Below are positions 34,157 through 54,280 of a stretch of DNA of 64,000 nucleotides, piece by piece (positions within the stretch are counted from its first letter, which is position 1; every line of letters begins with the position of its first letter). Origin of the DNA: Alphaproteobacteria bacterium (GTDB lineage: Bacteria > Pseudomonadota > Alphaproteobacteria > Micavibrionales > Micavibrionaceae). The stretch covers positions 2,631 to 66,630 of the forward strand of contig JAJFGR010000011.1 in NCBI GenBank assembly GCA_021776025.1, given 5' to 3'. Below the pieces are notes generated by a model. It worked only from the letters and a program-made list of their open reading frames with translations. It ran no database searches and was not told the origin of the DNA. The translations under genes and the position numbers were made by a program.

Positions 34157-34846
34157 TTAGTCTGTCTTTTTCCAAAGCGGGTCTTTGATTTTGCCAAGCA
34201 GCCCTTCGTGTGCGGCCAACTCTTCCGCAGACGCTTTATGCGCTCTGGGCTGTTTTAATTTTCGTTTGGCGTTCACAGAATTTTTCTCTGCCTGTTCAGC
34301 TTTAGCGGTCTCTGCAGCAAGGCCTAAGCCGTGTTGACGCCCCCCCAATAGCTCAAGATACACTTCGGCTAATAATTCAGAATCCAAAAGTGCGCCGTGA
34401 TATGTCCGCTCGGTATTATCAATGCTAAAACGGCGGCATAAAGCATCAAGATTTGCAGGAGACCCGGGGAATTTTTTCCGCGCCATGCCCAGCGTATCAA
34501 TCACGTTGCCCCAGCCGATCGCCGGATGACCGACCTGCCCCAGCTCCCAGTTGATGAATTTCATATCGAATTCAGCATTGTGAATGATAAGTTTGCTGCC
34601 TTCGATAAACTCCATGAACTCGCTGTAAATCTGTGAAAAAATGGGCTTATCAGCAACGAATTCATTGGTTATACCATGTATGGCTATGGCCTCGGCGGGA
34701 ATTGCCCGCTCCGGGTTGATATAAATCTGCAATGTTTTGCCGGTGGGGATATGGTTTAAAAGCTCAACGCAACCGATCTCGACAATCCGATCACCATTAT
34801 GCGGATCCATGCCTGTGGTTTCCGTGTCGAGCACTATTTCTTTCAT
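34157..34846 (-). CDS. dnaQ: DNA polymerase III epsilon subunit (3'-5' exonuclease)
   Basis: 229 aa. Exo motifs are VLDTETTG, HNAEFD and YHGALLDSELLAEVY. Confidence 0.9.
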   Translation of the reverse strand: MKEIVLDTETTGMDPHNGDRIVEIGCVELLNHIPTGKTLQIYINPERAIPAEAIAIHGITNEFVADKPIFSQIYSEFMEFIEGSKLIIHNAEFDMKFINWELGQVGHPAIGWGNVIDTLGMARKKFPGSPANLDALCRRFSIDNTERTYHGALLDSELLAEVYLELLGGRQHGLGLAAETAKAEQAEKNSVNAKRKLKQPRAHKASAEELAAHEGLLGKIKDPLWKKTD

Positions 34847-34874
34847 GTTTTACAATCTCCGCTTTGTTTGTCGC

Positions 34875-35555
34875 TCATGCGATATTTTCCTCTTGTCGCA
34901 TTTCTTCCTGCGGGTTTTCTTCGTCTCTGATTTTAGCCACAGCCGCCTTTAATTCCTTCATCATAACGCTTCGCCCTAACCCACTATGCACAACAAAATC
35001 AGCGCGCGCGCATTTTTCACCATCAGGCATTTGCCGTTTTAGAATGCCAGAGAGTTTTTTTTGTGTCATTCCCACGCGGGCCAAAACCCGAGCTTTTTGT
35101 ATAAAAACTGGGGCGGAAATATTAATCGTATAATCTACGCGCTGGTCAGCCCCGGTTTCAAAGAGCAAAGAAATATCCAGCGCGACGATATCGCGCCCTA
35201 ATCGTTCTTGCGCTTTTATAAATTCATTTTGTGATTTTTGAACAAGCGGATGTAGAATTGCTTCCAGCTTTTCACGCTCATGATCTTTTTCAAAAACGAG
35301 TTTACCCAGCGCATCGCGCCTCAAATAACGCTGCGTATCCTTAAGCGGGTTCCAAAAATGTTTGCGGCCATAAATTTGGGGGTAGGAAAAGTACGGAAAG
35401 GCCGCAGTAACCGCATACCACGCCTGGCTACCATAGCGCAGGAGTTCATGCACAGAAGCATCGGAATCGTGAACCGCCACGCCGATATACTCTAACATAG
35501 AGCCAGCGGTCGTTTTACCCATACCGATCGAGCCCGTGAGGCCGAGTACAATCAT
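34875..35555 (-). CDS. coaE: dephospho-CoA kinase
   Basis: The N-terminus MIVLGLTGSIGMGKTT is a P-loop. The protein is 226 aa with a short acidic C-terminal extension. Confidence 0.9.
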   Translation of the reverse strand: MIVLGLTGSIGMGKTTAGSMLEYIGVAVHDSDASVHELLRYGSQAWYAVTAAFPYFSYPQIYGRKHFWNPLKDTQRYLRRDALGKLVFEKDHEREKLEAILHPLVQKSQNEFIKAQERLGRDIVALDISLLFETGADQRVDYTINISAPVFIQKARVLARVGMTQKKLSGILKRQMPDGEKCARADFVVHSGLGRSVMMKELKAAVAKIRDEENPQEEMRQEENIA

Positions 35556-36385
35556 TTTAAAACCAAGCTTCTCAATTCATCTGTTACATCAGGAAGCAAC
35601 CCAAACCATTCTTTAAAAGCGGGCCGCGCCTGATGGATTAGCATGCCAATCCCGGTTATCGCAACATTGCCGTTTTCTTGTGCGGCTTTCAAAAGGTCGG
35701 TTTGCAGCGGCGCATAAACAATGTCATTAACCAGCGCTTTTTTTGGCAGGGCGCCAAAATCAATATCGAGCGCTGGCTGCCCTTCCATCCCTAAAGATGT
35801 TGTATTGATCAAAAGGTCCGCACCCTCAAGGATTTGATGCCGCAGCTCCCAAGTGCCTACGATGATTAAATCGCTTGAAAACCCCATTTCATCTTTAATT
35901 TTTTCGGCTTTTTCACGTGTGCGGTTGATAAGGATAATCTGGCCGATCTCCTCGCCAATAAGGCCGCTGATAATTGCGCGCGCTGCACCGCCAGCTCCAA
36001 GTACAACAGCGCGCTTCTTTTCAAATTCAAAATCGGGCGCTGTATCCCATATATTGTTTAAAAAGCCAAAACCATCGGTATTAAGGCCATGCAACTTGCC
36101 GTCTTCAATCACAACGGTATTCACGGCGCTAATGGCCTGAGCGTTGTGTTCAACTTTATCACATAAAGAAAGGGCCGTTTCCTTGTGTGGCACGGTGACA
36201 TTAAACCCTGTGTAACCCTCGTCAATTAGGCGTTTAACGCCGCCCTCCAAATCATCTGGCGGAATATCAATGGCCTCGTATGAGCCTTGCAGACCATAGG
36301 CCTTGATCCAGTAATTATGGATCAATGGTGATTTTGAATGGGTGATTGGGTGGCCGATAACGCCTGCTTTGATAAATTCACTCAT
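35552..36385 (-). CDS. aroE: shikimate dehydrogenase
   Basis: 277 aa. Carries GVIGHPITHSKSPLIHN, NVTVPHK and VLGAGGAARA. Confidence 0.9.
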   Translation of the reverse strand: MSEFIKAGVIGHPITHSKSPLIHNYWIKAYGLQGSYEAIDIPPDDLEGGVKRLIDEGYTGFNVTVPHKETALSLCDKVEHNAQAISAVNTVVIEDGKLHGLNTDGFGFLNNIWDTAPDFEFEKKRAVVLGAGGAARAIISGLIGEEIGQIILINRTREKAEKIKDEMGFSSDLIIVGTWELRHQILEGADLLINTTSLGMEGQPALDIDFGALPKKALVNDIVYAPLQTDLLKAAQENGNVAITGIGMLIHQARPAFKEWFGLLPDVTDELRSLVLK

Positions 36386-36975
36386 AACCCGATACCCTGC
36401 TCTTGGCGCAAATATGTCAGAAGCGGTAAAAGCGGCATACCTAAAATTGTGAAATAGTCACCCTCAATACTCTCGAATAATTGCGCGCCTATAGATTCAA
36501 GTTCATATGCGCCGACGGAGCGTGTCAAAGCCTCTCCCGCTTCTTCTATATAGGCTTCCAAAAATTGATCGTTAAAATCATGCATCGTCAAAAATGCGGA
36601 TTGCACATCTTGCCAGAGAATCTCATCGTTTTTTACAACCGTCACGGCAGAAATAAGATTATGCGTTTTACCGCGTAGAATTGTTAGTTTTTCACGAGCT
36701 TCTTCTATATTTGCTGCCTTATCCATTATTTTATCTTCGTATTGCAAAATTTGATCAGACCCAATCACTAGCGCATCTGGAAATTTATTTGCAATAAGCA
36801 AAGCTTTTTCACACGCCAGTATGCGAGCAATATCCTGTGGTGATGCCTCAGTCTTCAGTTGCTCTTTTTTTATAGAATCTTCATCTAAATCTGCTGGAAA
36901 TGCTTCAAAATCAAGGCCTGTAGCACGGAGCATGTTTTGCCGCGTTACGCTTTTTGATGCGAGAATGAGTTTCAT
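36382..36975 (-). CDS. maf: Maf-like nucleoside triphosphate pyrophosphatase
   Basis: 197 aa. Carries MKLILASKSVTR and GAYELESIGAQLFESIEGDYFTILGMPL. Confidence 0.85.
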   Translation of the reverse strand: MKLILASKSVTRQNMLRATGLDFEAFPADLDEDSIKKEQLKTEASPQDIARILACEKALLIANKFPDALVIGSDQILQYEDKIMDKAANIEEAREKLTILRGKTHNLISAVTVVKNDEILWQDVQSAFLTMHDFNDQFLEAYIEEAGEALTRSVGAYELESIGAQLFESIEGDYFTILGMPLLPLLTYLRQEQGIGL

Positions 36976-37886
36976 TCTTTTGCCTCTTTGGCCCCAGACT
37001 CTTTTTCCGCAATTTTATCTAGGCGGCTTTGTAACAGTGCCATAATTTCCGCAGCTGTTTCTTCGATAGAGCGCTTGGTCACATCAATGACCGACCAGTC
37101 TTTTTTAGTGAACATGCGCCGGGCTGTGCGGACCTCTTCTTCGATTTCCTCTTCATCGAGATACATATTATCTTCGATATAATCGGGCACGGACTCTCCA
37201 TTGGAGTTAAGCCGTGTCCGGCGCAAATGCATCAAACGTTGCGGAGAAGCTGTCAGGCCAACATACATAGGCCTCTCAAGCGAGAGTTTTTCATCGGGCA
37301 CTTCAACGCCAGGCACGAGCGGAATGTTGGCAACCTTAATACCGCGCCGCGCGAGGAAAACAGAGGTTGGTGTTTTTGATGTGCGCGAAACGCCAACCAG
37401 AATAACATCAGCATGTTTTAGGCCTTTAAGCGTTTTTCCATCATCATGGCGCATAGCGTAATCTATAGCTTCCACGCGTTTAAAATAAGCATCATCCATG
37501 GCGTGCTGAAGGCCGGGAACACCCATGGCGTGCTCCCCAAGATATGAAGACAGGCTACGAATAATCGGATCAAGCACGGCGACGCAGGGAATGCCCAGCT
37601 CATCGCAAAAATCCTGCAAGCGGTGGCGCATTTTTCGATCAACGAGGGTAAAAATCACCGGCCCCGGTGTTTCCTGAATGCGCGCGATTATACGCTCTAA
37701 TTGCCGCTCAGAACGTACAAGGGGCCAGAATTTCTGCACAGGCTCAATATGCTCAAACTGCGCCAAACACGCGCGTGCGAGGCCTAATAAGGTTGTGCCG
37801 GTGGCATCAGAGACCAAATGCAGGTGAAATTGTTTGGAAGCGCCCTCTTGCTGGGCTTTATGCTCATCGTCTGTGTTTTCTGTCAT
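36972..37886 (-). CDS. pyruvate, phosphate dikinase regulatory protein (PDRP/DUF299 kinase-phosphotransferase)
   Basis: 304 aa. Carries HLHLVSDATGTTL and ILVGVSRTSKTPTS. Confidence 0.85.
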   Translation of the reverse strand: MTENTDDEHKAQQEGASKQFHLHLVSDATGTTLLGLARACLAQFEHIEPVQKFWPLVRSERQLERIIARIQETPGPVIFTLVDRKMRHRLQDFCDELGIPCVAVLDPIIRSLSSYLGEHAMGVPGLQHAMDDAYFKRVEAIDYAMRHDDGKTLKGLKHADVILVGVSRTSKTPTSVFLARRGIKVANIPLVPGVEVPDEKLSLERPMYVGLTASPQRLMHLRRTRLNSNGESVPDYIEDNMYLDEEEIEEEVRTARRMFTKKDWSVIDVTKRSIEETAAEIMALLQSRLDKIAEKESGAKEAKE

Positions 37887-37940: not shown

Positions 37941-39017
37941 TTAGTGGATTGTGTCTTTATCTTCGGCGGTAAATTCACCATTTGGAAAGATCATTTCAGC
38001 CAGCCTTGCATCCCGGAAGGGAACGCTTTGAACACGCACAACTTTCAAGTCATAGAGAATTTGCATGAAATGAGCCTGATTGATGGGATCGGTTAACCCA
38101 GCATAGAGCGGATCGCTTAAAACTTCCGGTCCCTGCCCTTGCAGATACGCGGTTCTGTCAGGCAAGCATGAAAGCATCTCTATGCCTATTGGTGTTAGTT
38201 TTTTCCGACCAAAACCTTCGCATTCTTCGTAATCTTGCACAACGCCGTCAAGATAATTCAAAACTTCGTGATCGCAGCTGTTAACGCGGCGTTCATCGCG
38301 AAACCATTGTGAAAAGGCAGCGGCTAACGCTTTGCCGTTAAATAGTGACGCAGGATCGCGCTCCAGATAACCAGAAAAATGCATGGCGATATCGCCATCT
38401 TCAGAGCCAATAAGGTGACGCCACAGACTTCCTTCGCCTTCACCGCGCAATTCCCATGCAACCAAAACGGCCAATGTATCGAGATCTGCGGCGCGGGTGC
38501 GCTCCAACATCATCACCGCTTCGGGGCCATATTCCGTATCAAAGGCGCCGTGACGTTTTTCCTGCCATACATCGCGCAAGGCACGGATCATGGAAACTAG
38601 GACGGCATTTTTGAAATATTCGGAAGCGCTCAATGCGCTGGTGACCAGATCCTGATCATCTAAAACGATAAGCTTTTCAGGGACGTCTAGGTGAAAGTCC
38701 GGACCGCCCAGTGCCTCCAGCGCTAAAGACCAACCATTCTTTTCGGCTTCCTTGAGCATTGCGCGCGCGCTAGGGCTGGTAGAAAGCTGTGCAATTGCCC
38801 ACGACAGAACCGCATGTTTGTCGTCTTGAGGAATCGCTACATTATTTTCAGAAGATAAATCCGTAAAGGCCCATGAATCACATGAAGATTCACAAAATGC
38901 CTTTATAGTGGGCAAGATAGACGGTTGTTTTTGAAAACTTACAGGCTCAAACTCTGCTTCGGCACGGACATCCGCAGCACTCATATCTTTGTTGTTTCGT
39001 GAATCATGATCGCTCAT
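37941..39017 (-). CDS. hypothetical protein; paralog of the upstream gene
   Basis: The ORF-track entry (to 39497) overlaps the upstream gene, so it was trimmed to the ATG at 39017 (MSDHDSRNNKD…). It shares MIRALRDVWQEKRHGAF, VLVAWELRGEG and AAAFSQWFRDERRVNSCDHEVLNYLD with the neighbour. Confidence 0.6.
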   Translation of the reverse strand: MSDHDSRNNKDMSAADVRAEAEFEPVSFQKQPSILPTIKAFCESSCDSWAFTDLSSENNVAIPQDDKHAVLSWAIAQLSTSPSARAMLKEAEKNGWSLALEALGGPDFHLDVPEKLIVLDDQDLVTSALSASEYFKNAVLVSMIRALRDVWQEKRHGAFDTEYGPEAVMMLERTRAADLDTLAVLVAWELRGEGEGSLWRHLIGSEDGDIAMHFSGYLERDPASLFNGKALAAAFSQWFRDERRVNSCDHEVLNYLDGVVQDYEECEGFGRKKLTPIGIEMLSCLPDRTAYLQGQGPEVLSDPLYAGLTDPINQAHFMQILYDLKVVRVQSVPFRDARLAEMIFPNGEFTAEDKDTIH

Positions 39018-39072
39018 GTCACACTCCCTGTTACGCAGATCAAAAAGCTGCTTTTGAAACTGTTGCGTTCCC

Positions 39073-40434
39073 TTATTCGGCTGGAGAACGGCGGATGTAG
39101 ACAACATTTGAGGTGTCGTTCTTATTGTGTATTCGCCCCGAATGCGATTTTGGTGCCAAACGCCCGGTGTTTTTCTTAGACTTATCCCCTGTTTCGCCCG
39201 TTTCGATGCTTTGCTGCTCGAAAAGTGAGATAATTTCGGCTGATTGCTGCCCTGTGAATGCATGATCCTGAACCCCTTGTTGATTTGGTGCAGAAGAACG
39301 GAAGCCTTCTGCGGCTGGTGGGGATGAGGTTTGCAACTCTTGTTCCGATTCGCGGAAAGAGCGCTCAAACTTGATAAACCATAGGAAATTGGCGTTAGAG
39401 CGGTCGCGCACATCGGTAAATATCGCATCTTCCATGATGGTGATGGCATGTTCTGCCAGGTAATTTTTGCCGAAGGGCATTTCGCCCAGCGCCGCAATCA
39501 ATGTTGGCGTGATGTTTTGCTCTGCTTCTTCCAGATCAAAAACATAACCTTTATAATCGGCGAGCATTTGATTAATAAGAATTTTATCCTGCGCGCGGCA
39601 TCTTTCGGTTAAAAACCATGCCTCAAAGACAGCAGCAGCGGCCTGTCCGTTATTAATTGTACGGAAATCAAGGAAGGCTTCGCGAGCGAAGGCACGGCCC
39701 AAATCTGCCATTGATGAGTTTTCAATGCGCTCCCATGCGTCTTTATTGCCAGACAGCTGAAGTTCCCAAGATACGCGGATCATAGAAACTACCAGATCAG
39801 CGACCTGAGCGCGATTTACAAGAACAGCGTTATCCGGGTGAAACATAAGTGGATGGATCAATGCGCCTTGGCGATGTTGCCAGTGACGACGCAATTCCTG
39901 TACAGCCAAAAGCTGCTGATCAACAAGATCTAGATTCGGATTGATGAAGATAAGCCCTGCCTCACGATCATATTGTGCGGTTTCAATCTGCGCTGAGTAC
40001 TTCAAAGAAACATTATATTCTTCAGCACATGCTAAATAAGCAGTGGCTAAGCGGCTTTCGCGTAAAATCTCGCTTAAATCTTGAATTGAGGGCTGAGCAG
40101 TTTCCTTTGATGGCTGCGTAATAAACGAAGAATCAGCTAAAAATTCATCAACTTTTTCACTGCTATCGCGGGCAAACCCTTCGGACAATTTTTCTATGGC
40201 TTCTAATTCACTTTTTAGAGAATGAATTTCACTTTCAAGAATACCAAGATCGGCCGCATCAAAACCTAGATCTTCCTCATCCTCATAACCGCAATCAAAA
40301 TCCATATAAAATAATGGCTGATCGCCAATGATGGTGCTGACAACTGACTGGGCGCCGTTAATTGTATAAGCAACCCTGCAAACAGGTTTCGTGGTTTGAT
40401 TTTGTCCCGTGATGTCCCCAAATAAATCGCTCAT
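39073..40434 (-). CDS. hypothetical protein; paralog of the downstream gene
   Basis: 453 aa. Carries VQELRRHWQHRQGALIHP, MIRVSWELQLSGN and AAAVFEAWFLTERCRAQDKILINQMLADY. No TM helix or signal peptide. Confidence 0.6.
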   Translation of the reverse strand: MSDLFGDITGQNQTTKPVCRVAYTINGAQSVVSTIIGDQPLFYMDFDCGYEDEEDLGFDAADLGILESEIHSLKSELEAIEKLSEGFARDSSEKVDEFLADSSFITQPSKETAQPSIQDLSEILRESRLATAYLACAEEYNVSLKYSAQIETAQYDREAGLIFINPNLDLVDQQLLAVQELRRHWQHRQGALIHPLMFHPDNAVLVNRAQVADLVVSMIRVSWELQLSGNKDAWERIENSSMADLGRAFAREAFLDFRTINNGQAAAAVFEAWFLTERCRAQDKILINQMLADYKGYVFDLEEAEQNITPTLIAALGEMPFGKNYLAEHAITIMEDAIFTDVRDRSNANFLWFIKFERSFRESEQELQTSSPPAAEGFRSSAPNQQGVQDHAFTGQQSAEIISLFEQQSIETGETGDKSKKNTGRLAPKSHSGRIHNKNDTSNVVYIRRSPAE

Positions 40435-40705: not shown

Positions 40706-41320
40706 TTACTGCCCGAATGTATCGTCCAGAACGGGAATATCTTCGACCAGTAATTCTTCATCATTTAGAGAAACAAAACCGTTTGGTTCAACTTTGATGT
40801 TGCTTTTAAACAGGCTGTCTTTGAAAATCATACAGGCTTTAAGATGATAATTTCCTTCTCCATCGGTATTCTCAAGCGTTATAGGTATCAGTATTTTACC
40901 AATCGCTTTGCGCGCAGAAGGCGGCGGGTCTTCCTTCCAGTTTATATCATCAACGCTTTCGGTTATGATGAAACGACCATGACGCCCTCTGACATAGGTG
41001 AAGAAAAACCGAACATAATCGGAAATATTATCTTCACTGAGTTTTATGGGGAGTTTTTGATTGAGTTCATAGATCGGCTCGTTCGAAAAATTGAGAATAA
41101 TGAACATATCCTCGCTATATAGAACAAAGCGGCGCATCGCCGGCACAGAGGCATAATCAGCAATATCAAGCAGGCGGTAGCCGGAATAAAAAGTAACGTC
41201 CTGAGCAAGTACAGTTGTTTCAACAGGATCAAAGACACTGCCATCAAATTCAGGATTGAGTTTGTCCAGAATTGTGGCGATTTCATCCAGTTCCAGTTTT
41301 GTGAAAGCCTCTTGATACAT
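40706..41320 (-). CDS. hypothetical protein, divergent from hemE across the candidate origin
   Basis: 204 aa, soluble, with no motif I recognise. It occupies the position of the conserved hypothetical gene that flanks Cori opposite hemE in Caulobacter and Rickettsia. This is a positional argument only. Confidence 0.5.
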   Translation of the reverse strand: MYQEAFTKLELDEIATILDKLNPEFDGSVFDPVETTVLAQDVTFYSGYRLLDIADYASVPAMRRFVLYSEDMFIILNFSNEPIYELNQKLPIKLSEDNISDYVRFFFTYVRGRHGRFIITESVDDINWKEDPPPSARKAIGKILIPITLENTDGEGNYHLKACMIFKDSLFKSNIKVEPNGFVSLNDEELLVEDIPVLDDTFGQ

Positions 41321-41710
41321 AAAGAATCCGCTGCGTTACGATATACTCACTTTTAATGATTAACACAGAATCGATTCTGCGCATAGATTTGTGCGTAACT
41401 AACCAAAGAATCACAGGATAAATCGGGGAAGAAGTTATGCCCATTTCATCAGAATTTTTAAATGGGAGTCATCCCCATGGGGAAAACAAGGAATCGCTTG
41501 ATTCAACTTATCTGGGGGAATCATAGCGAATCCAAATGAAAGAGCCCTTGTTAGAGATGTCATTATTGGGGGTAAAAACGGGGGCGAAATCTATGCCCGT
41601 TACTCACAGGACCTACTACTATAAAAACCCTTTTTAAATATAAAGATATAATTAGTATAGCGAGCTTAGATAGGGAATAGTGATCGAAATGATGGAATTG
41701 GTTTGAATGA
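41321..41710. other. candidate chromosomal replication origin (oriC) and hemE promoter region
   Basis: A 390-bp divergent intergenic region upstream of hemE. It has 9 GANTC (CcrM-type) sites between 41324 and 41532. It also has the palindromes AGAATCGATTCT (41367-41378) and TCCCCATGGGGA (41472-41483), five G4-5 runs, and an AT-rich stretch at 41621-41660. No perfect TTATCCACA box is present. Confidence 0.5.
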
Positions 41711-42757
41711 ATGTTTGCAGTTGAAAATTTAAAAAGTGATAAGCCGTTTCTCGATGCGTTAAGCGGGGTGAAGGCTGAGAGGCCGCCATTTTGGTTTATG
41801 CGACAAGCGGGGCGATATCTGCCGGAATATCGAGAACTTCGGGCTGAAAAAGGTGGGTTTTTGGCGATGGCTATGGATCTGCAAACAGCGTGTGAGATTA
41901 CGATGCAACCCATTCGGCGTTTTGGGATGGATGCGGCAATTATTTTTTCTGATATTCTCACCGTGCCGATGGCGTTGGGGCAGCATTTGGAATTTGTTGA
42001 AGGGGAAGGGCCGAAGCTGGGAGAGTTGAATGTTGGGGCTTTGAATTATTCTAATTTTTCAAAGCTTGATCCGGTTTATGAAGTTTTGGAGAATGTGAAA
42101 ACTGCGTTGCAGGTGGAGGGGTTTAATCATACATCATTGATTGGTTTTTCCGGGGCGCCCTGGACGGTGGCAACTTACATGGTTGAGGGTGGATCATCGC
42201 GTGATTTTCTCAAGACGAAATTGATGGCGTATCAGGATCCGCAAGGGTTTGGGGCGTTGATTAATATGCTGGTTGAGGCGACAGCAACATATTTGATTAA
42301 TCAGATTAATGCGGGCGCTGAGGTTGTACAGATTTTTGATAGTTGGGCGGGAGCGCTCGATGCGGATGGATTTAAACGCTGGTGCGTTCAGCCCACACGT
42401 CAGATTGTGGAGATGGTTCGAGCGGCGCATCCACATGTGCCGATCATCGGATTTCCAAAAGGCGCGGGGTATAATTATTTGGCTTATGCGCAAAATACAG
42501 GGGTTACAGCATTGGGGCTTGATCAGCATGTACCGACAGATTGGGCGGCGCGGGCGTTGCAATCGCTCATGCCGGTGCAGGGTAATCTTGATCCTCTTGC
42601 ACTTATGGCAGGCGGGGATGTTATGGCGTTAGCTGTGGAGAAAATAAAAGGTGATTTGTCTGTAGGGGCTTTCGTATTTAATTTGGGTCACGGAATTCAC
42701 AAAGACACGCCGGTGGAGCATGTTGAAGCCTTAGTGAAAATGATCAAAGGTGAATGA
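41711..42757 (+). CDS. hemE: uroporphyrinogen decarboxylase
   Basis: 348 aa. Carries PPFWFMRQAGRYLPEYR and IIFSDIL. Confidence 0.9.
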   Translation: MFAVENLKSDKPFLDALSGVKAERPPFWFMRQAGRYLPEYRELRAEKGGFLAMAMDLQTACEITMQPIRRFGMDAAIIFSDILTVPMALGQHLEFVEGEGPKLGELNVGALNYSNFSKLDPVYEVLENVKTALQVEGFNHTSLIGFSGAPWTVATYMVEGGSSRDFLKTKLMAYQDPQGFGALINMLVEATATYLINQINAGAEVVQIFDSWAGALDADGFKRWCVQPTRQIVEMVRAAHPHVPIIGFPKGAGYNYLAYAQNTGVTALGLDQHVPTDWAARALQSLMPVQGNLDPLALMAGGDVMALAVEKIKGDLSVGAFVFNLGHGIHKDTPVEHVEALVKMIKGE

Positions 42758-43829: not shown

Positions 43830-44276
43830 ATGCAAGAAATTTTTTCTCAAAATTATGAATGGTTACGGGCGCTCCATATTATCAGTGTGATTTCATGGAT
43901 GGCGGGGATGCTCTATCTGCCGCGGTTGTTTGTTTACCATGCCGATAGTGAGGTTGGATCGGATAAATCCGAGACATTTAAAATCATGGAATATCGCCTG
44001 TTAAAATTTATTATCAATCCGGCGATGATGGCGGCCTGGATTTTGGGGCTATCTATGCTGTATGCCAATCCGGCGATGATGGAGGATGGATGGATTCACG
44101 TGAAACTTTTATTGGTGCTGATTATGTCCGGCGTTCATGGGATGCTGGCGAAGCAGGTTAAAGTTTTCGCGAGAGATGAGAATGAAAAAAGCGCTAAATA
44201 TTTCCGCATTCTCAATGAAGTGCCTACTGTTTTGATGATTGCGATCGTTATTTTAGCGGTTGTGCAGCCTTTTTAA
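43830..44276 (+). CDS. hemJ: protoporphyrinogen IX oxidase HemJ-type membrane protein
   Basis: 148 aa with 4 TM helices. Carries LRALHIISVISWMAGMLYLPRLFVYH. It starts on the base after the hemH stop. Confidence 0.8.
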   Translation: MQEIFSQNYEWLRALHIISVISWMAGMLYLPRLFVYHADSEVGSDKSETFKIMEYRLLKFIINPAMMAAWILGLSMLYANPAMMEDGWIHVKLLLVLIMSGVHGMLAKQVKVFARDENEKSAKYFRILNEVPTVLMIAIVILAVVQPF

Positions 44277-44564
44277 GATTTTCGAAACCATAATCATTTA
44301 GATTGAGATAAGTGCTTGACAGCATTTCACCCTTATGGTTAAAGGGAAGTGTCTTTAAGGATAAATCCACAAAATTTTGGGACGTTTTGATTTGAGCCGC
44401 GCAGAGCACGGCCGCGTATTTGAGAAAATAAACGCCTTTAGAGCAGTTATTTAAGGTAAGCCCACTAGAACGTATATATATAGCGCGATAGAGCACTTTC
44501 CCGAAAAGTTTAAGAGTAAACCCCAGAAATACCATAATTATAACACTAACAGGACGAAAGTCTT

Positions 44565-45821
44565 ATGAACTTACAAGAATTAAAAACCCGCTCCCCGGCA
44601 GAATTGTTGGCTTTTGCGGAAGAATTGGAAATCGAAAACTGCAATACCATGCGCAAGCAGGATATGATGTTTGCGATTTTGAAGCAGCTCGCAAATCAGG
44701 GAACGCCGATATCGGGCGCTGGTGTATTGGAAGTGCTGCAAGATGGTTTTGGCTTCCTGCGCTCCCCGGAGGAAAATTACCTTCCTGGACCAGATGATAT
44801 TTACGTTTCCCCTTCACAAATACGTCGTTTTGGTTTGAGAACAGGCGATACGCTTGAGGGTGAAATTCGCGCGCCGAAGGATTCAGAGCGTTATTTTGCG
44901 CTGCTTAAGGTTGGGTCTATTAATAATGAAACGCCCGATAAGCTTCGCCATAGGATTAATTTCGACAATTTGACGCCGCTCTATCCAGACCGTAAAATTA
45001 CGCTCGAGCTTGAAGACCCAACGAAGAAAGATAATGTCCAGCGCGTTATTGAGTTGACCTCACCAATTGGTTTTGGCCAGCGTGCGTTGATTGTAGCGCC
45101 GCCGCGTACAGGTAAAACTGTGATGCTCCAGAATATTGCAACTTCGATTGCTGAAAATCACCCGGATGCGTATTTGATCGTACTTTTGATTGATGAGCGC
45201 CCGGAAGAGGTGACCGACATGGCGCGCTCTGTGCGCGGCGAGGTTGTTTCTTCTACATTTGATGAGCCGGCCTCACGGCACGTACAGGTCGCGGAAATGG
45301 TGATGGAAAAGGCTAAACGTTTAACAGAGCATAAGCGCGATGTGGTGATTTTGCTCGATTCTATTACGCGTCTTGCTCGTGCGTACAACACAGTTGTGCC
45401 ATCTTCTGGTAAGGTTTTAACAGGCGGTGTGGATGCGAACGCTCTGCAACGCCCTAAGCGTTTCTTTGGTGCGGCTCGTAATATTGAACAAGGCGGATCG
45501 CTGACGATTATCGCGACAGCGCTGATTGATACTGGTTCACGGATGGATGAAGTGATCTTTGAGGAATTCAAAGGTACTGGTAACTCTGAGATTGTTCTGG
45601 ATCGTAAAATCTCTGATAAGCGCGTCTTCCCATCGATTGATATTCAGAAATCCGGTACACGGAAAGAAGAATTGCTCGTTGATAAAGATACCTTGCAGAA
45701 AATGTGGGTCTTGCGCCGCATTCTTAATCCAATGGGGACCGTCGACGCCGTTGAATTCCTGCTTGGCAAGATGAAGCAAACGAAGAACAATGATGAGTTC
45801 TTCAATTCAATGAATCAGTAG
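44565..45821 (+). CDS. rho: transcription termination factor Rho
   Basis: 418 aa. Carries [21 protein letters not shown], Walker A PPRTGKT and LIDERPEEV. Confidence 0.95.
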
Positions 45822-45845
45822 AAATTCACGGGTAAGCTGGTGGCT

Positions 45846-46262
45846 CTATTTCTTTTTTTCTGAATCTTCTTTTAGCGTGCGCACGGTATAGGCGACAAAA
45901 TCACGCTGAGAAAGCATGCCGATAAGGTTTCCATCATGGTCGACGACAGGTATATGGCGAAAACGGCCATGATCCATGCGGCCCATACAAAGAATCGCTG
46001 AATCATGCTCGGTCGCTGTTTCTATGTTTTGGGACATAACTTCGGAAATTGGAGTGCTTTCAACATCACGCCCCTGTCCGACAACGCGCGCTAGCAAGTC
46101 ACGTTCTGTAAAAATTCCGACTAATTTATCTTTTTCAGTCACAGCAATTGCGCCGCATTGCCTGTATGTCATGGAGACGACGGCATCATAAATGGTGTCG
46201 GATGGCGCGCATGTTAAAACTTTTGTTCTATTTTTGAATTCTGGTATATCGGCAATTTTCAT
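45846..46262 (-). CDS. CBS domain pair protein
   Basis: 138 aa. Two CBS repeats are present (VTEKDKLVGIFTERDL; VVDHDGNLIGMLSQRDF). Confidence 0.8.
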   Translation of the reverse strand: MKIADIPEFKNRTKVLTCAPSDTIYDAVVSMTYRQCGAIAVTEKDKLVGIFTERDLLARVVGQGRDVESTPISEVMSQNIETATEHDSAILCMGRMDHGRFRHIPVVDHDGNLIGMLSQRDFVAYTVRTLKEDSEKKK

Positions 46263-46597
46263 GGTTTTCGTTCCTTTTGGGGCATGGCATTGTTGTGTGT
46301 AGATAAGCCTATAATTTCATATAGCTTTATATACAGCATAATGATTATTTCATGAAAAACAGGTAAGCATACAAACGTATTTAAAGGAAAAGCATCTAAA
46401 ATTTCATCTAAATACTTTCCTTAATCTATTGAAATACAAACCAAAATCGAAACGAAAGTATTTGCCATAATGTAGTTTTTGTGGTGAGATGAAATTATAA
46501 GCAATGGCCTATCTCAAAGGTTATAAAAAATAAAAACGGGTTCGCATCTAAGCTATATAAAAAAATAAAACAGTGCGTAAGACTTAGGTGGGTAACA

Positions 46598-47095
46598 ATG
46601 AAAACTTTTAAGTATTCCAATAAATGGAAGACCAATCCGCGGGTTGCTTATCTGCCCGGCGTTGTATTGGTCTCTTTTGTTTTTATACTTTGCGTTGTGG
46701 CTCACCCGGCTTGGTCGTTTGAGAGCGTTGATCATAGCGCTCAGCCATACGCAGAGAAACAAGCTTTAACTTCTACACATCCCTCTTCCCCGACCGTGGT
46801 GGATCCATGCCTTCCCCTGCTCAAATCCATCCATCATGCCTCCTCAACATCCTCCATGGATCGGAACCAGCGCTCGGCTGGAAAAGCAGCAGCAATTGGC
46901 TTGGTACTTGGTGTGCGTTTCGCCCTCTCGCCACCAAAGAAAACCAAGTCATATGCTGATAGACCGCGCCTAGACCTCTGGCAACCTGCTGGTGTAATTG
47001 GCGGTGACCGCTCTGCTCTCGCGGTTAGCGCCTATCGCCAATGCCAGAAAGAACAGGCGCTTAAGGCTATCAGCGATTTTCGTTGGGCTCGTTAA
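46598..47095 (+). CDS. hypothetical secreted or membrane-anchored protein
   Basis: 165 aa with an N-terminal hydrophobic segment (VVLVSFVFILCVVAHPAWS). No recognisable domain. Confidence 0.4.
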   Translation: MKTFKYSNKWKTNPRVAYLPGVVLVSFVFILCVVAHPAWSFESVDHSAQPYAEKQALTSTHPSSPTVVDPCLPLLKSIHHASSTSSMDRNQRSAGKAAAIGLVLGVRFALSPPKKTKSYADRPRLDLWQPAGVIGGDRSALAVSAYRQCQKEQALKAISDFRWAR

Positions 47096-47237
47096 TGCCT
47101 CTCTTTCCAGCGGTTCACGCCCTGGAAGGCCTAGCGAAATATAAGTTTGCTGTAAATTAAGACTGTCCCTCGCGTCGCTGGTCGTCTCTAAAAACCCCCA
47201 CACGGTTTTTGAGACGGCCGCTTCTCGTTTTGGGTCT

Positions 47238-48782
47238 TTATTTTTTAGTAAACAGGGTTTCCAGAGATTTTTGCATCGCGCTTTTAATATAGATTTTGGC
47301 AACGATATATCCTATTCCCAGCGCTGCTAGGACAGACAGCGCATCGACTCTGAGTGCAATATTTGCATTGGGTAACCCAGGCGCTATTAGGGCCTTCCCG
47401 GCGAGGAAATAGCCTGCGGCGATGAGTCCAGAGATCAGCAGTCCTATGGCAATTCCTATTTGCCGCGGCTTTTTGCCAATCAGGCTCAGCGCTTTTCCAG
47501 CCATGATGACCAGCTTTTTAGCGCTGTCTTCTGATAAACCGATCGGGTTTTTTTCTATGACAGCGTTTAAGGCTTTTTTCGGGCCAAGCTTAGAGGTTGC
47601 GAGGATTAGATGACGCAGCGTTCTGTAGCGCCCAGCTGTTTGGATGAGCGTAGCGATGTCTCCTTGGCCCAGTGCGGCGCGTTTTAAAGCCTTAATGCCG
47701 GGGCTCATAATTTTCTCTAGGAATGAGGGCATATCATAAAGTTGCCCCTGTGTACCGAAGAGGAAAGCTGGAACGGCCAGTTTTTCTTTCAGCATAAACT
47801 CGACCTGCGCCATGGGGACTTTGATATGATAAGGAATGGAAATATCGTCGCGTTCTTCTTCCAGTTCTTTATGCCGGTGAATCACTTGTATATCGCTGTG
47901 GTGCTGGATATCTGAGCCTAGGAGATCCAGCTTATCTAAGGGTTGCTGTGGAATGTTGCCACGATCAAAACTATAATTGGCGATCGGGTTTATTTCCGCC
48001 ATACCGATTACTGAATTCCAAGCATGACCGTTACATTGTTTGCACATCACTGTCCCTGCAGCTTTGCAGATAGAGCAGTGAATTTCTCTTTTTTCATGAC
48101 ATTGGGTGCACCCTACCCGGCCAGAGCCATTACAACGCTGGCATTGCTGGTTCTGATTATTTGGCCCTTGAATGTATTGCCGCCCGCTACAGGTTGGGCA
48201 GACTTCAGTGCCACGGGCTTGACAGCGTGGGCATGGTTCTTCGCCTTTGCCATGACAACGTGCACAATTGATCTTTCCTTTAGCCGCGCAAGGTTTACAG
48301 GGCTCATGGGCAACGAAATCTTTATGCAGGAATGGAAGTTTGATCAGGATGTTTTGCAGGCATAGGCCTTTATCAGGGCGCTCTAAAACAGCTTTGCACA
48401 TGCGCTCAACGACGTCGAGGCTATGCGCGATTTTGTGGGCTTCCTTATTGACAGCTTCTTGAAACATGCCGGAATTTTGCAGCAGTATTGGTCCGGTAAT
48501 CTTGCCGGCCTGATGTTTAATGGCGAGTTTTGTATCGAGGGTTAGTTCGGTGAGGGCGAGGAATTCAAGCGTTTCGCCTTCAAATTTTGTGATGTTTACA
48601 TCTTCAGCTTTGATGCCATTGCCTTTTACGGCTTCGACCATTTGTTTAAGGGCGATGGGTTTAAGCTCAGGATCTATCTCAGAATGGTAGACCTGCGGGC
48701 CTGTGTTGCCAGAGGCGCCTTGTGCATCGGGCGCTTCTGTCTCGGGTGGTTGATCAGGATATGGTGGTGGCTCTTCGCTCAA
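47238..48782 (-). CDS. membrane-anchored protein with a DnaJ-like multi-CxxC zinc-finger array
   Basis: 514 aa. The central CKPCAAKGKINCARCHGKGEEPCPRCQARGTEVCPTCSGR…CQRCNGSGRVGCTQCHEKREIHCSICKAAGTVMCKQCNGH contains ten CxxC pairs. Two TM helices lie at the C-terminus. Confidence 0.6.
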   Translation of the reverse strand: MSEEPPPYPDQPPETEAPDAQGASGNTGPQVYHSEIDPELKPIALKQMVEAVKGNGIKAEDVNITKFEGETLEFLALTELTLDTKLAIKHQAGKITGPILLQNSGMFQEAVNKEAHKIAHSLDVVERMCKAVLERPDKGLCLQNILIKLPFLHKDFVAHEPCKPCAAKGKINCARCHGKGEEPCPRCQARGTEVCPTCSGRQYIQGPNNQNQQCQRCNGSGRVGCTQCHEKREIHCSICKAAGTVMCKQCNGHAWNSVIGMAEINPIANYSFDRGNIPQQPLDKLDLLGSDIQHHSDIQVIHRHKELEEERDDISIPYHIKVPMAQVEFMLKEKLAVPAFLFGTQGQLYDMPSFLEKIMSPGIKALKRAALGQGDIATLIQTAGRYRTLRHLILATSKLGPKKALNAVIEKNPIGLSEDSAKKLVIMAGKALSLIGKKPRQIGIAIGLLISGLIAAGYFLAGKALIAPGLPNANIALRVDALSVLAALGIGYIVAKIYIKSAMQKSLETLFTKK

Positions 48783-48871
48783 AATAAATGTCCTTTATGT
48801 AGCCTTTATGCTAGAAACTGCGGTTATTACAGCACGAAAGACAGCGTAAGATCAATGAAAGCGCAAGCAAT

Positions 48872-50209
48872 ATGAGTGATACGATTTATGCATTGGCGAG
48901 TGGAATGGGTCGCGCGGGGGTTGCCGTGGTGCGGGTTTCTGGGCCGGGAAGCTGGGAGAGCTTGGAAGCGTTAACCAGTAAAAAAGGCTTTGAACCACGT
49001 TTGGCGCAGCTGGTGACGCTTTCGCATCCTGATTCACGTGAAACGCTTGATCAAACTCTGGTGCTGCCGTTTAAAGGGCCTGCCAGTTACACCGGTGAAG
49101 ATGTGGTGGAATATCATCTGCATGGCGGGCGGGCGGTGATAGATGCTGTCATAGGCGCGCTGTCTGCGCAAAAAAATCACCGTATGGCGGAGCCGGGAGA
49201 GTTTACCCGCCGGGCTTTTGAAAACGGCAAGATGGATTTGACCGCCGCAGAAGCTGTAGCGGATTTAATTGATGCGGAAACGCAGGCGCAGAAAATTCAA
49301 GCGCTCTCGCAAATGGATGGAGCGCTTTCAAATCTTTATGAAGGATGGGTCGATAGTCTGACCAACAGCCTCGCGCATCTGGAAGCGGATATTGAATTTC
49401 CTGATGAAGATTTGCCTGAAGGGATTGCGCCGGAGGTGACTGATACAATTCAAAAGCTGATAGTTGAAATTGATGAGCATCTCAATGATAACCGTCGCGG
49501 AGAGCGGCTGCGCGACGGGATTCAGGTTGTGGTTATTGGCGCCCCAAACGCCGGAAAATCTAGTCTTGTCAATGCGTTAGCTCAGCGTGACGTGGCGATT
49601 ATTTCTGATATGGCCGGAACAACGCGCGATGTGATTGAAGTGCATCTGGATCTTGGTGGGTACCCGGTTGTGTTGGCGGATACGGCCGGCCTCCGCCCTG
49701 ACCAGATTGGAGGCGAAGGGCAAGAGCAAATAGAATCCGAAGGAATTCGCCGCGCGCTGCAAAGAGGAGAAGAGGCTGATATTGCTTTGCTCGTTTTTGA
49801 TGCGAGCGAAGAAGTTCCCGATCCGCATACACTCAATCTGATTGATGAGCGCTCTATTTTGGTTGCTAATAAAATGGATGATTTGTTTTCGGATAATATC
49901 ATGGCGGGCGCGATAGGAATTTCCGTGACGAAGAATATTGGCTTGCCGGACTTGCTCAAAGTTCTAGAAGACAAAATTAAAGTTCTGATGGATAGTGCAC
50001 GTGAGGTTCCATCGCTTACACGTCAGCGACACCGGAGCCATGTTGAAGAAGGGTTGGAAGCTTTAGCCCGTTCACAAAAAGCGGACTTGCCTGAGCTGAT
50101 GGCTGAGGATTTACGGCTGAGCATCCGCGCTTTGGGCCGCATAACAGGCCGCATTGATGTTGAGGATCTCCTCGATGTGATTTTCAAAGATTTTTGTATC
50201 GGGAAATAG
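48872..50209 (+). CDS. mnmE: tRNA modification GTPase MnmE
   Basis: 445 aa. Carries IYALASGMGRAGVAVVRVSG, GAPNAGKSSL, DTAG and the C-terminal FCIGK. Confidence 0.95.
   Translation: MSDTIYALASGMGRAGVAVVRVSGPGSWESLEALTSKKGFEPRLAQLVTLSHPDSRETLDQTLVLPFKGPASYTGEDVVEYHLHGGRAVIDAVIGALSAQKNHRMAEPGEFTRRAFENGKMDLTAAEAVADLIDAETQAQKIQALSQMDGALSNLYEGWVDSLTNSLAHLEADIEFPDEDLPEGIAPEVTDTIQKLIVEIDEHLNDNRRGERLRDGIQVVVIGAPNAGKSSLVNALAQRDVAIISDMAGTTRDVIEVHLDLGGYPVVLADTAGLRPDQIGGEGQEQIESEGIRRALQRGEEADIALLVFDASEEVPDPHTLNLIDERSILVANKMDDLFSDNIMAGAIGISVTKNIGLPDLLKVLEDKIKVLMDSAREVPSLTRQRHRSHVEEGLEALARSQKADLPELMAEDLRLSIRALGRITGRIDVEDLLDVIFKDFCIGK
49030..49045. other. parS-like site (14/16 match to TGTTTCACGTGAAACA)
   Basis: TGATTCACGTGAAACG, inside mnmE. 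It encodes D-S-R-E in frame. Confidence 0.5.
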
Positions 50210-50211
50210 TG

Positions 50212-50634
50212 CTATTCAGCAGCCATCGCCGGAGTCTCAAATCCCTCATCTTTTAGCCGCTGCGTTACGGTTTTTTTAATAGCTTCAAAATCAGGCTCGA
50301 GCGGCTTGTCCCCTTCTGTGCGGGGCTTGGTCGCTAATTCTTTAAAAAGTTTCCATGATTCAGCGACGTAGCTTCTGTCTCCCACAACAAGTGGCAATGC
50401 TCTGCTGAGAAAATACAACATCAGAGGTTGGTGCGCTTTTAAATGGAATGTCTCCGAGAGGTGCTCTTGTTGAGATAGGCCATCTCCCTCATAAGGGTTT
50501 CCACCATATATTTGATCAAAGGTGTTTTTTTTAGGTTGAGCATTGAGTTGTTGAGCATCGAATTCATTTTTAAGCGCCTCAGCAACGTCTGCAACGTTTT
50601 CCGCTTTTATTTTATCAGGGTATTTAAATGACAT
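50212..50634 (-). CDS. hypothetical protein
   Basis: 140 aa, soluble, wedged between mnmE and mnmG on the opposite strand. No recognisable motif. Confidence 0.45.
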   Translation of the reverse strand: MSFKYPDKIKAENVADVAEALKNEFDAQQLNAQPKKNTFDQIYGGNPYEGDGLSQQEHLSETFHLKAHQPLMLYFLSRALPLVVGDRSYVAESWKLFKELATKPRTEGDKPLEPDFEAIKKTVTQRLKDEGFETPAMAAE

Positions 50635-50765
50635 TTTTGTGGGGCCTCTACGACCAATAAAAGCTTAATGTTTATTAAAAGTCGTTTTTCAAATTAAGTG
50701 CAAGTAGTATTTACAGAAAAATTTAAAACTGTATTTTTTGGAATAAAAAATGTATAAACGCCGCC

Positions 50766-52694
50766 ATGGAACAAGAATTTGACGTCATTGTTGTTGGTGG
50801 GGGACACGCTGGTTGTGAAGCGGCGGCGGCGTCTGCGCGCATGGGTGCGAATACAGCGCTGCTAACGCATAAGCTTGATACCATTGGCGTGATGTCGTGT
50901 AACCCGGCGATTGGCGGTTTGGGCAAGGGGCATCTGGTGCGCGAGATTGATGCGCTGGATGGGTTGATGGGCCGGATTATTGATCAGGCCGGGATTCAGT
51001 TTCGGATGCTTAATGCATCAAAAGGCCCTGCAGTGCGTGGGCCGCGTGCGCAGGCGGATCGGAAGCTTTACCGAGAATCCATGCAGGTCGAGCTTAAGGA
51101 TTATCCAAATCTGACACTCGTTGAAGGCGCGGCGGATGATCTCATTTTTAATGATGATGAGGTGGCCGGCCTTAAAACGTTCGACGGGCGGGAGCTGAAA
51201 TGTAGATGCGTTGTGCTTACTGCCGGGACATTTCTGCGTGGGATGATTCACCGGGGTGAAGAACAAATTCCGGCGGGGCGTGTTAAAGAAACCGGCGGGG
51301 TTGAGGCTCCGTCAATTGGTTTGGCCGAAACGCTGGAGCGTTTGGGCTTTCCACTAGCGCGCTTGAAAACCGGCACCCCTGCTCGGCTTGATGGGCGCAC
51401 AATTGATTGGGAAGCGACCGAAGAGCAGGCCGGTGATGCTGTGCCAATCCCATTTTCATATTTAAATCAAAAGGTTAGCGTTCCGCAGATTAATTGCCAC
51501 ATTACTTATACGAACGAAAAGACGCATAAAATTATTGCCGATAACATTCATAGGAGCGCGATGTATTCCGGGAATATCTCTGGCGTGGGGCCGCGCTATT
51601 GCCCGTCTATTGAAGATAAAATAAGCCGCTTTGCTGATAAGCCGCGCCACCAGATTTTTCTGGAGCCGGAGGGGCTCGATGATCACACCGTTTATCCGAA
51701 CGGTATTTCGACGTCTCTGCCGATTGAAATTCAAGATCAATATATCCGCACTATTGCGGGTCTTGAAAACGTGAAGGTGCTCGAATGGGGCTATGCGATT
51801 GAATATGATTATTGCGATCCGAGAGATCTTAAATATACGTTGGAAAGCAAGCGCGCGCCGGGGTTGTTTTTGGCTGGGCAGATTAACGGGACAACCGGAT
51901 ATGAAGAAGCGGGTGCCCAAGGATTAATGGCAGGGGTGAATGCGGCGCTACAGGCGCGAGAAAATGTTTCACGTGAAAACGCGGAGGTTTTTACGCTGGA
52001 TCGCGCGGATGCCTATATAGGGGTTTTGATTGATGATTTGATTACGCGCGGTGCGCCGGAGCCGTATCGGATGTTTACCAGCCGCGCGGAATATCGTCTC
52101 CGTTTGCGCGCCGATAATGCCGATCAGCGATTGACGGATAAGGGGATCGAGATTGGTTGCGTTGATGTTTCACGTGAAAACGCTTGGAAGGTAAAATCTG
52201 AAAAATTAGTGGCTGCGCGTGAAATGACTCAGTCTTTAAGTATGACGCCGAATGAATTGGAAGCGCATGGCATTGGCATTAATAAGGACGGCCAACGGCG
52301 CAATGTTTCTGACCTGCTGGCCTATCCTGATATTGATTGGGAGCAGGTACAAAATGTGTGGCTAGAGCTTGGGATAATTGAAGGGGCCGTTCGTGAACAA
52401 ATCGAATGTGATGCGCTTTATGCGAATTATATGGAGCGGCATGAGGCCGACATTGCGGCGTTCCGTAAAGATGAGGCTTTGGTGTTACCTGCGGCGCTTA
52501 ACTATGCTGATGTGGGGAGCCTGTCGAATGAAGTGCGGGCAAAATTTGAGTTAGTACGACCTACAACGCTAGGTGCGGCATCTCGTATTCCTGGCATAAC
52601 CCCGGCGGCCGTTGTTGCTTTGCTCCGGCATGTGAAGCGCAAAAATTCATCACAAAAATCTGGCCAGAAATCAAAAAAACGTCATGTGGCCTAA
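50766..52694 (+). CDS. mnmG: tRNA uridine 5-carboxymethylaminomethyl modification enzyme MnmG (GidA)
   Basis: 642 aa. Carries [15 protein letters not shown] and [11 protein letters not shown]. Confidence 0.95.
51965..51980. other. parS-like site (14/16)
   Basis: TGTTTCACGTGAAAAC, inside mnmG. It encodes V-S-R-E. Confidence 0.55.
52166..52181. other. parS-like site (14/16)
   Basis: TGTTTCACGTGAAAAC, inside mnmG. It encodes V-S-R-E. Confidence 0.55.
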
Positions 52695-53316
52695 AGATCT
52701 TAACATTGACGTTTCACGTGAAACGCATGAGAAGTTAGAGCTCTATCACGCGCTTTTATTAAAGTGGCAAAAGGCGATTAATCTGGTTAGTTCCAAAACA
52801 ATCGATGAGGCTTGGGTGCGGCATTTTGCGGACTCGGTGCAGATTGACCGGCATATGCCATTCGATGTTTCACGTGAATCACGAATTGTTTTTGATTTAG
52901 GTAGCGGCGCTGGGTTTCCCGGATTGGTGCTGGCGATATTGCGACCGGACTTAAAAGTTCGCTTGATTGAATCGGATGAACGCAAGTGTCAGTTTTTGAA
53001 AACGGTTTCACGTGAAACAAATGTGGATGTAACGGTGCATAATTCGCGTATAGAAGATGTACAAAATGACATCTGTCCGGACCTCATCACAGCCCGGGCG
53101 CTGGCTGATTTAAAAACCTTATTAGAGTATATCGAGCCTTGGGCTTTGGCCTCCCCAAACTTACAATGTTTGTTCCTAAAGGGCGCTAAAGTAGAAGAGG
53201 AGCTTGAGGGCGCACGCAAATATTTCTTGTTTGATTGCGAGCAGTTTCCAAGCGTGACAGACCGTCAGGCACGCATTCTTCATTTGAGAAATATTACCCG
53301 CAAAAACGGTGCATAA
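52684..53316 (+). CDS. rsmG: 16S rRNA (guanine527-N7)-methyltransferase RsmG (GidB)
   Basis: 210 aa. Carries [15 protein letters not shown] and ITARALA. Overlaps mnmG by 11 nt. Confidence 0.9.
52710..52725. other. parS-like site (perfect 16-bp palindrome, 14/16 to consensus)
   Basis: CGTTTCACGTGAAACG, inside rsmG. It encodes V-S-R-E. Confidence 0.6.
52866..52881. other. parS-like site (15/16)
   Basis: TGTTTCACGTGAATCA, inside rsmG. It encodes V-S-R-E. Confidence 0.7.
53004..53019. other. parS-like site (15/16)
   Basis: GGTTTCACGTGAAACA, inside rsmG. It encodes V-S-R-E. Confidence 0.7.
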
Positions 53317-53413
53317 AAGCTTCTCAAAGCCTTGCTATAGTTGAATCCAGCAGGGAATCGGGGCAATATGGTTTTATTCCAGTTCGCTCCATTCTTTCAG
53401 AGGGTTTATCGCC

Positions 53414-54253: not shown

Positions 54254-54264
54254 CCACCTTCTAT

Positions 54265-54280
54265 GGTTTCACGTGAAACA
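54265..54280. other. parS-like site (15/16) in the parA-parB intergenic spacer
   Basis: GGTTTCACGTGAAACA. It lies 11 nt after the parA stop and 26 nt before the parB ATG. Confidence 0.75.

Follow-up and report, generated by a model that had tools for sequence, protein, structure and literature searches.

The window, a 64,000-nucleotide stretch of DNA (C3:2631-66630) from a genome of 24 contigs, 2.3 Mb and 47% G+C (G000), contains a 390-bp intergenic spacer at 41321-41710 that raises the question of whether chromosome replication begins here or whether two divergent genes simply share a promoter. In the list of open reading frames, the whole spacer lies between a conserved 204-aa gene (40706-41320, minus strand), divergent from hemE, and hemE itself (41711-42757, plus strand), an assignment made in an earlier note on this DNA and borne out by a match to TIGR01464 (373 bits). 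The closest hemE genes are those of uncultured Alphaproteobacteria and Micavibrio MAGs. The earlier note took the spacer to be the origin of the chromosome or, failing that, a control region beside hemE marked by CcrM, and this proposal is supported by Caulobacter-like synteny and by the presence of ccrM, ctrA, gcrA and dnaA in the genome. We conclude that the spacer is very probably the chromosomal oriC of a Micavibrio-like alphaproteobacterium and represents the hemE-adjacent kind of origin originally described from Caulobacter.

To the left of the spacer, all genes are on the minus strand: dnaQ, coaE, aroE, maf and ppsR (duf299), which form the conserved left-hand origin cluster (34157-37886), then two DUF6782 genes and the 204-aa gene. 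To the right, mostly on the plus strand, are hemE, hemH, hemJ and rho, followed by mnmE, mnmG, rsmG, parA and parB, and genes therefore diverge from the spacer on both sides. Around mnmE-mnmG-rsmG-parA-parB, 3-13 kb to the right of the spacer, we found a cluster of eight parS-like sites (44092, 49030, 51965, 52166, 52710, 52866, 53004 and 54265; 44092-54280). The window held 17 strand-matches to parS versus 1.7 expected, with one outside the cluster, at 8675. Read from these motifs, the cluster at 44092-54280 is the origin-proximal partition region, and the expectation in the earlier note that parAB/parS, mnmG and rsmG should lie near the origin holds, since all are within 13 kb of the spacer. 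This flanking order, a conserved origin cluster with parS alongside, speaks against an alternative reading in which the spacer is only the divergent promoter of hemE and the 204-aa gene, controlled by CcrM methylation, GcrA and DnaA in a transcriptional role, and the origin is at some other place, such as the region upstream of dnaA or a different skew feature.

The regulators that such an origin or promoter would employ are encoded on other contigs. The dnaA gene lies at C15:32866-34191, gcrA at C10:19464-19871 and ctrA at C4:171947-172618, the last being 74% identical to a Caulobacter CtrA query sequence. The earlier note had named a lack of ccrM in the genome as grounds for refuting its reading; a CcrM-like gene is present at C21:510329-511510, where it was recognised by eye from a DPPY motif, the adjacent rnhB and the GANTC-rich promoter in front of it.

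The two kinds of gene that separate duf299 from the spacer deserve a separate description. The 204-aa protein has 772 homologs of fixed length; the best 120 of these 772 are at least 60% identical, and all the named ones are called 'hypothetical protein'. It had no Pfam or NCBIfam match, and a fold search with a confident AlphaFold model (pLDDT 87.6) returned no PDB match (best E-value 0.07). The 204-aa protein is best described as a lineage-specific conserved origin neighbour. The two adjacent DUF6782 (putative metallopeptidase) ORFs, at 37941-40434 on the minus strand between duf299 and the origin, have frames that overlap at 39073-39497, and thus the downstream ORF probably begins after its listed start.

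A dense cluster of CcrM methylation sites is the most obvious feature of the spacer. The nine GANTC sites in 209 bp described in the earlier note are all present, at 41324, 41368, 41373, 41408, 41466, 41491, 41500, 41518 and 41528. GANTC is otherwise depleted, both in the window (141 sites versus 225 +/- 15 in shuffles) and in the genome (1.69 per kb versus 3.88 predicted from base composition), and at the genome rate of 1.69 per kb only ∼0.35 sites are predicted in 209 bp. A density of nine GANTC per 210 bp was reached at only two loci in the 2.3-Mb genome, the spacer and the ccrM promoter (C21:510244-510425). That dense GANTC also occurs at cell-cycle promoters (nine sites at ccrM and seven upstream of rsmH/dcw) is a point in favor of the reading that the spacer is a promoter only. 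Direct reading of the sequence also bore out the two 12-bp palindromes, AGAATCGATTCT at 41366-41377 and TCCCCATGGGGA at 41471-41482, and the five runs of four or five G followed by A-rich sequence, at about 41424, 41478, 41513, 41567 and 41579.

Comparison with related genomes revealed which of these features are maintained. Spacer DNA was present in 19 of 20 same-genus genomes and partly in two other genera of the family. All 20 related genomes examined have a spacer of 307-426 bp with the 204-aa gene on one side and hemE on the other, and each of these 20 spacers contains 4-9 GANTC. Four GANTC columns are kept. The first (GAATC, 41408-41412) is retained in 15 of 20 genomes and adjoins the conserved block CACAGGATAAAT; the second (GAGTC, 41466-41470) is retained in 18 of 20 and overlaps the start of the DnaA-box-like TCATCCCCA; and the third and fourth form the pair GAATCATAGCGAATC (sites 41518 and 41528; 41518-41532), each kept in 19 of 20 genomes within a near-invariant alignment block. 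Preceding this pair is TGGGGG, whose reverse complement is W-box-like (TCCCCCA). The five other sites (41324, 41368, 41373, 41491 and 41500; 41324-41504) are lineage-specific or partly kept, in 1-8 of 20 genomes. Enrichment of GANTC upstream of hemE was observed in 20 of 20 genomes of the genus and family and in 27 of 27 Micavibrio-like loci (3-12 per 510 bp versus ∼1 in the flanks), and also in some Sphingomonadales.

The spacer contains no perfect DnaA box TTATCCACA, as the earlier note had said; its top 9-mers are six in number and each has exactly two mismatches, so that the best match to TTATCCACA is 7/9. All six lie inside conserved blocks of the 20-genome alignment, and relatives are nearer to the TTATCCACA consensus at the same columns. 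The leftmost, TGTGCGTAA (41390-41398, minus strand), matches TGTGGATAA at 7/9 positions, and is followed by TTATGCCCA (41435-41443, plus strand; 7/9), which reads TTATCCGCA, TTACCCCCA or TTATCCCAA in relatives. Two abutting inverted sites, TCATCCCCA on the plus strand and TGGGGAAAA on the minus strand, occupy 41469-41486 (relatives TCATGCACA or TCATACACA); with starts at 41469 and 41478, they are the palindrome TCCCCATGGGGA. Each contains an exact TCCCCA, the core of the Caulobacter W-box, and the statement in the earlier note that weak Caulobacter DnaA sites carry such cores agrees with the published W-box consensus (PMC4285127). The fifth site, TGGGGGTAA (41567-41575, minus strand; 7/9), is GTGGATAA (8/9) in L098 and L100, TGTGCATAA in L097 and TGTGGGTAA in L084. 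The sixth, TTACTCACA (41600-41608, plus strand; 7/9), was found where the earlier note had placed its best match; it is the box nearest the unwinding region and reads TTATTCACA, TTATGCACA or TTACCCACA (8/9) in relatives.

We also considered the number of DnaA boxes as a criterion for the origin and rejected it. When two mismatches were allowed, 56 loci in the genome had at least six boxes per 390 bp, and when one was allowed, no cluster anywhere in the genome exceeded four per 400 bp. The count of degenerate boxes is non-distinctive, which again leaves room for a promoter bound by DnaA. Because counting does not discriminate, the case for an origin rests instead on conservation, context, a unique module and skew.

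That module begins at the 41600 box. In the basal unwinding layout described for other bacteria, a proximal DnaA box is followed by a GC-rich spacer of 4-5 bp, DnaA-trios and AT-rich DNA (PMC8235120, PMC6669920), and we used the definition of a box, a spacer, at least three 3'-GAT-5' trinucleotides and an AT-rich element (PMC8235120). The sequence here reads TTACTCACA, the GC-rich spacer GGAC, CTA CTA CTA (41609-41621 for spacer and trios, plus strand; 3'-GAT-5' three times on the lower strand) and an AT-rich stretch, in agreement with this definition. The highly conserved AT-rich stretch (41620-41660), a putative DNA unwinding element that the earlier note had also pointed out near the hemE start, begins 12 bp past the box and is 87.5% A+T at 41620-41659. 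A box with at most two mismatches, a gap of 3-6 nt and CTACTA occurred at two places genome-wide, and only the one at 41600 has a GC-rich spacer and an AT-rich tail. The uniqueness of this module to the spacer speaks against a promoter alone, and the 1 kb upstream of dnaA, examined as a candidate origin in its own right, was rejected since it had neither a GANTC cluster nor a box-trio module. The module is kept in relatives, out to one whose hemE is only 65% identical; in G041, a more distant relative, it reads TTATTCACA-CCCC-CTA CTT CTT.

The AT-rich stretch also includes TATAAT at 41647-41652, possibly the -10 element of hemE; a scan for sigma-70 consensus promoters found no -35 partner for it. 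A search of 41000-42000 against Rfam matched no RNA family.

The arrangement of these elements suggests how initiation could proceed. DnaA-ATP would fill the array of about six weak degenerate boxes (41390-41608), and a DnaA filament would then grow from the 41600 box over GGAC onto the three CTA (3'-GAT-5') trios. The adjoining 87% AT stretch (41620-41660) would melt, the helicase would load there and forks would exit both ways. The four conserved GANTC sites, three of which touch DnaA-box-like or W-box-like G-runs, would be methylated by CcrM; passage of a fork would leave them hemimethylated and so provide a cell-cycle mark, the reader of which could be DnaA, GcrA or a promoter. New origins would be segregated by the parS/ParAB cluster 3-13 kb to the right.

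The Caulobacter crescentus origin, Cori, offers the closest comparison. Cori lies between hemE and duf299 and contains two G-boxes, five W-boxes, five CtrA sites, an IHF site, five GANTC and an AT-rich region (PMC6393856). Both origins have hemE on one side and duf299-maf-aroE-coaE-dnaQ on the other, with rho, mnmE, mnmG, rsmG and parAB/parS on the hemE side; in both, an AT-rich region adjoins the hemE start, and there are several GANTC, one of which overlaps a DnaA site. They also share weak degenerate DnaA boxes, including TCCCCA W-box cores (PMC6393856, PMC4285127). Unlike Cori, however, the spacer has nine GANTC rather than five and no G-box (TGATCCACA), and three extra genes (two DUF6782 genes and the 204-aa gene) are inserted between duf299 and the spacer, so that the origin here does not overlap duf299. 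A consensus IHF site was not found in the spacer. The spacer also differs from Cori in having no CtrA site (TTAA-N7-TTAA): none was found at one mismatch or fewer, no perfect site was found in 20 relatives, and the spacer has one CtrA half-site-like sequence, TTAATCAT. CtrA sites of the form TTAA-N7-TTAA in the origin are a feature of Caulobacter and possibly of Rickettsia. Most alphaproteobacterial origins have no CtrA sites (PMC4468827). Judged from its sequence, the spacer very probably belongs to the already known hemE-adjacent origin type, here with many CcrM sites, weak DnaA boxes and a trio module, and without CtrA sites.

The unwinding region, in turn, resembles the basal unwinding system of Bacillus subtilis and Helicobacter pylori in having a box, a 4-bp GC-rich spacer, three CTA (3'-GAT-5') and an AT-rich element in the same order, and in an orientation of the box relative to the trios that we take to be the same. 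The GC-rich spacer is GGAC here and GGCC in some relatives, as in B. subtilis. The differences are that only two or three trios are perfect here and that the origin is not beside dnaA, which is ∼340 kb from the spacer in G009, a same-genus genome that is complete in one contig.

GC skew was the check proposed in the earlier note, which expected the cumulative minimum at the origin. Raw skew shows no such turning point: raw GC skew keeps the same sign across the spacer in the window and in contig C3, an absence of sign change that taken by itself favors a promoter without origin function, and the raw cumulative curve rises monotonically all the way round both the pseudo-chromosome of this genome and G009. 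In G009, of which 89% of the sequence was analyzed and in which the homologous spacer lies at 1,686 kb, the cumulative skew climbs to about +84,000 without a turn, and gene orientation failed to account for this. On the other hand, a minimum did appear in the spacer once the curve was detrended. We ordered nine large contigs by synteny with G009 into a pseudo-chromosome and subtracted the genome-wide mean skew; the detrended cumulative minimum was at C3:44,045, which is window position 41,415 and inside the spacer, and the maximum was at C21:472,827, giving about equal arms of 1.07 and 1.01 Mb. The minimum is shallow on its left side because the skew stays close to the genome mean in contig C10, the 170 kb to the left of C3, and so over roughly the first 200 kb leftward from the spacer, and the detrended curve of G009 flattens from about 1,650 kb without a sharp minimum. 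Thus, the raw GC-skew criterion is misleading in this genus if applied naively.

Skew at third codon positions (GC3), split by gene strand to give a strand component, provided a second view. In the window, the 7 kb left of the spacer have a GC3 skew of +3.4% and the 13.5 kb right of it one of +36%, and the same rise from left to right flank was seen in 22 of 23 related genomes (p = 2.9e-6), a step that speaks against a promoter at which no replication starts. Orientation of core genes in G009 agrees with this placement. Left of the spacer, the minus strand carries the rpoBC/S12/EF-G/EF-Tu/L2 block, ftsZ, gyrA and rpoD, and right of it the plus strand carries gyrB, 16S rRNA, atpD and lon; together these genes bracket the origin at 1,528-2,043 kb (spacer at 1,686 kb) and the terminus at 716-862 kb.

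Several other indicators were tried and set aside. Cumulative coding-strand bias in G009 was noisy and dominated by a few large genes, and hinted that the switch lies around 2,000 kb, not far from dnaA. Polarity of 8-mers in G009 mirrored base skew only and carried no independent information on direction. On C4 the raw skew changes sign at about 100 kb, and this position was dismissed as an origin: the first 77 kb of the contig have little counterpart in G009 and resemble variable or island DNA. A search with an E. coli-like dif consensus gave no convincing site in this genome or in G009.

A relative with normal skew made the position of the switch explicit. G041 (OZ253663.1) is the complete 2.41-Mb chromosome of the more distant relative and has a classic two-arm skew, with a GC3 strand component that is symmetric at +/-15%. 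Its skew switches from minus to plus in the 450-460 kb bin, and within the contiguous 240-640 kb analyzed the cumulative minimum is at 454,188, which places the switch or minimum at 452-454 kb. Since hemE is at 451,121-452,143, the skew minimum is ∼2 kb from the hemE start, whereas dnaA, at 352-354 kb, is 100 kb away from it. A skew switch at hemE, 100 kb from dnaA, argues against the reading that the spacer is a promoter only and replication starts upstream of dnaA. Taking this together with the conserved gene order, the genome-unique module and the GC3 step, we consider it very unlikely that the spacer is a promoter alone, and an origin of replication remains our preferred assignment.

Both arms of G009 are syntenic with those of G041, except for an inversion around the terminus, and because of this synteny the unusual skew of the genus does not stem from rearrangement or misassembly. 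In both this genome and G009, the same strand is rich in G and T along each of the two replication arms. For G009 we obtained a GC3 strand component of +42% in the distal part of the right arm (100-600 kb) and of +18 to +34% closer to the origin (1,700-2,100 kb); over the entire left arm it is +6 to +15% and not negative. The AT3 offset in G009 has the same sign as the GC3 offset, and the contigs of this genome, which are collinear with G009, gave the same picture once oriented. The skew of the genus behaves like a normal two-arm signal (+/-15%) to which a constant one-strand excess of G over C and T over A has been added, with an offset of about +25% at third codon positions.

Chromosomes of this kind have been recorded before. 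SkewDB documents 'asymmetric skew' in ∼250 of 30,000 chromosomes (PMC8941118), and the genus resembles these in having one arm strongly skewed and the other nearly unskewed. It differs from them in that its asymmetry was resolved, at third codon positions, into a normal +/- part and a genome-wide one-strand offset, and in that its arms are syntenic with those of a normal-skew relative, which argues that rearrangement is not the cause of the asymmetric skew here.

One explanation for the offset is that the ancestral origin still fires but that an extra polar process makes one strand leading-like around the whole chromosome. Candidates for this process are a leftward fork that frequently fails or is delayed, unidirectional or rolling-circle rounds, or a second initiation site. 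The positive left arm and strongly positive distal right arm of G009, the matching sign of AT3, the recurrence of the pattern in the oriented contigs of this genome, the exclusion of inversion and misassembly by synteny and the symmetric skew of G041 would all fit such a process. However, the highly expressed core genes of the left arm still point the way that fits a leftward fork, none of the asymmetric chromosomes in SkewDB has so far needed an exotic mode of replication (PMC8941118), and local offsets of either sign occur among relatives, which hints at a mutational or compositional cause over a fixed change in mechanism. We therefore think it improbable that the offset reflects a polar process, and give similarly little credence to the fuller proposal that the origin is normal, that a second polar process runs round the whole circle and that a sizeable share of rounds from this origin could be effectively unidirectional. 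If it were true, either the leftward fork would fail or replication would be rolling-circle-like during the growth phase of the predator.

Assignment of the origin to the spacer anchors a replication map (origin, terminus, arms and parS) for uncultured Micavibrio-like predators that have no experimental genetics. It would extend the Caulobacter-type hemE origin, dense in CcrM sites but without CtrA sites, to this order, and a DnaA-trio unwinding module of the Bacillus type is readable in an origin of the hemE type. Because the skew is one-sided, origin finders that rely on skew will misplace the origin of this genus or overlook it; subtraction of the genome mean, or the use of third-codon-position skew, recovers it.

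The level of GC3 skew around the origin varied by lineage among the hemE loci of related MAGs (L001-L029). Both flanks were negative in L004, L017 and L020, symmetric in L010-L013 and L016, and both positive in L001, L006, L008, L015 and L023; despite these differences in level, the step across the spacer nearly always had the same sign. Local rearrangements were also apparent within the genus. A 40-kb segment at 1,780-1,820 kb of G009 is inverted relative to C15:196-217 kb of this genome and has a skew of -11 to -15% inside the positive arm, a negative patch that implies a recent inversion. Over the 170 kb leftward of the origin, C10 differs from 1,469-1,635 kb of the other species, G009, by at least six local inversions.

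Other GANTC clusters in the genome lie in varied contexts. The ccrM promoter, downstream of rnhB, combines its nine GANTC with a perfect TTATCCACA, which suggests that ccrM may be controlled by its own methylation and by DnaA. A region 77 kb to the right of hemE (C3:120809-121005) has seven GANTC with AATCCACA and a perfect TTATCCACA, and lies upstream of a gene for a 742-aa repeat-rich secreted protein that is adhesin-like in appearance. Two further clusters of seven GANTC were found at C4:295625-295802 and C21:631947-632155, of which one adjoins rsmH at the head of the dcw cluster and the other is inside prmC.
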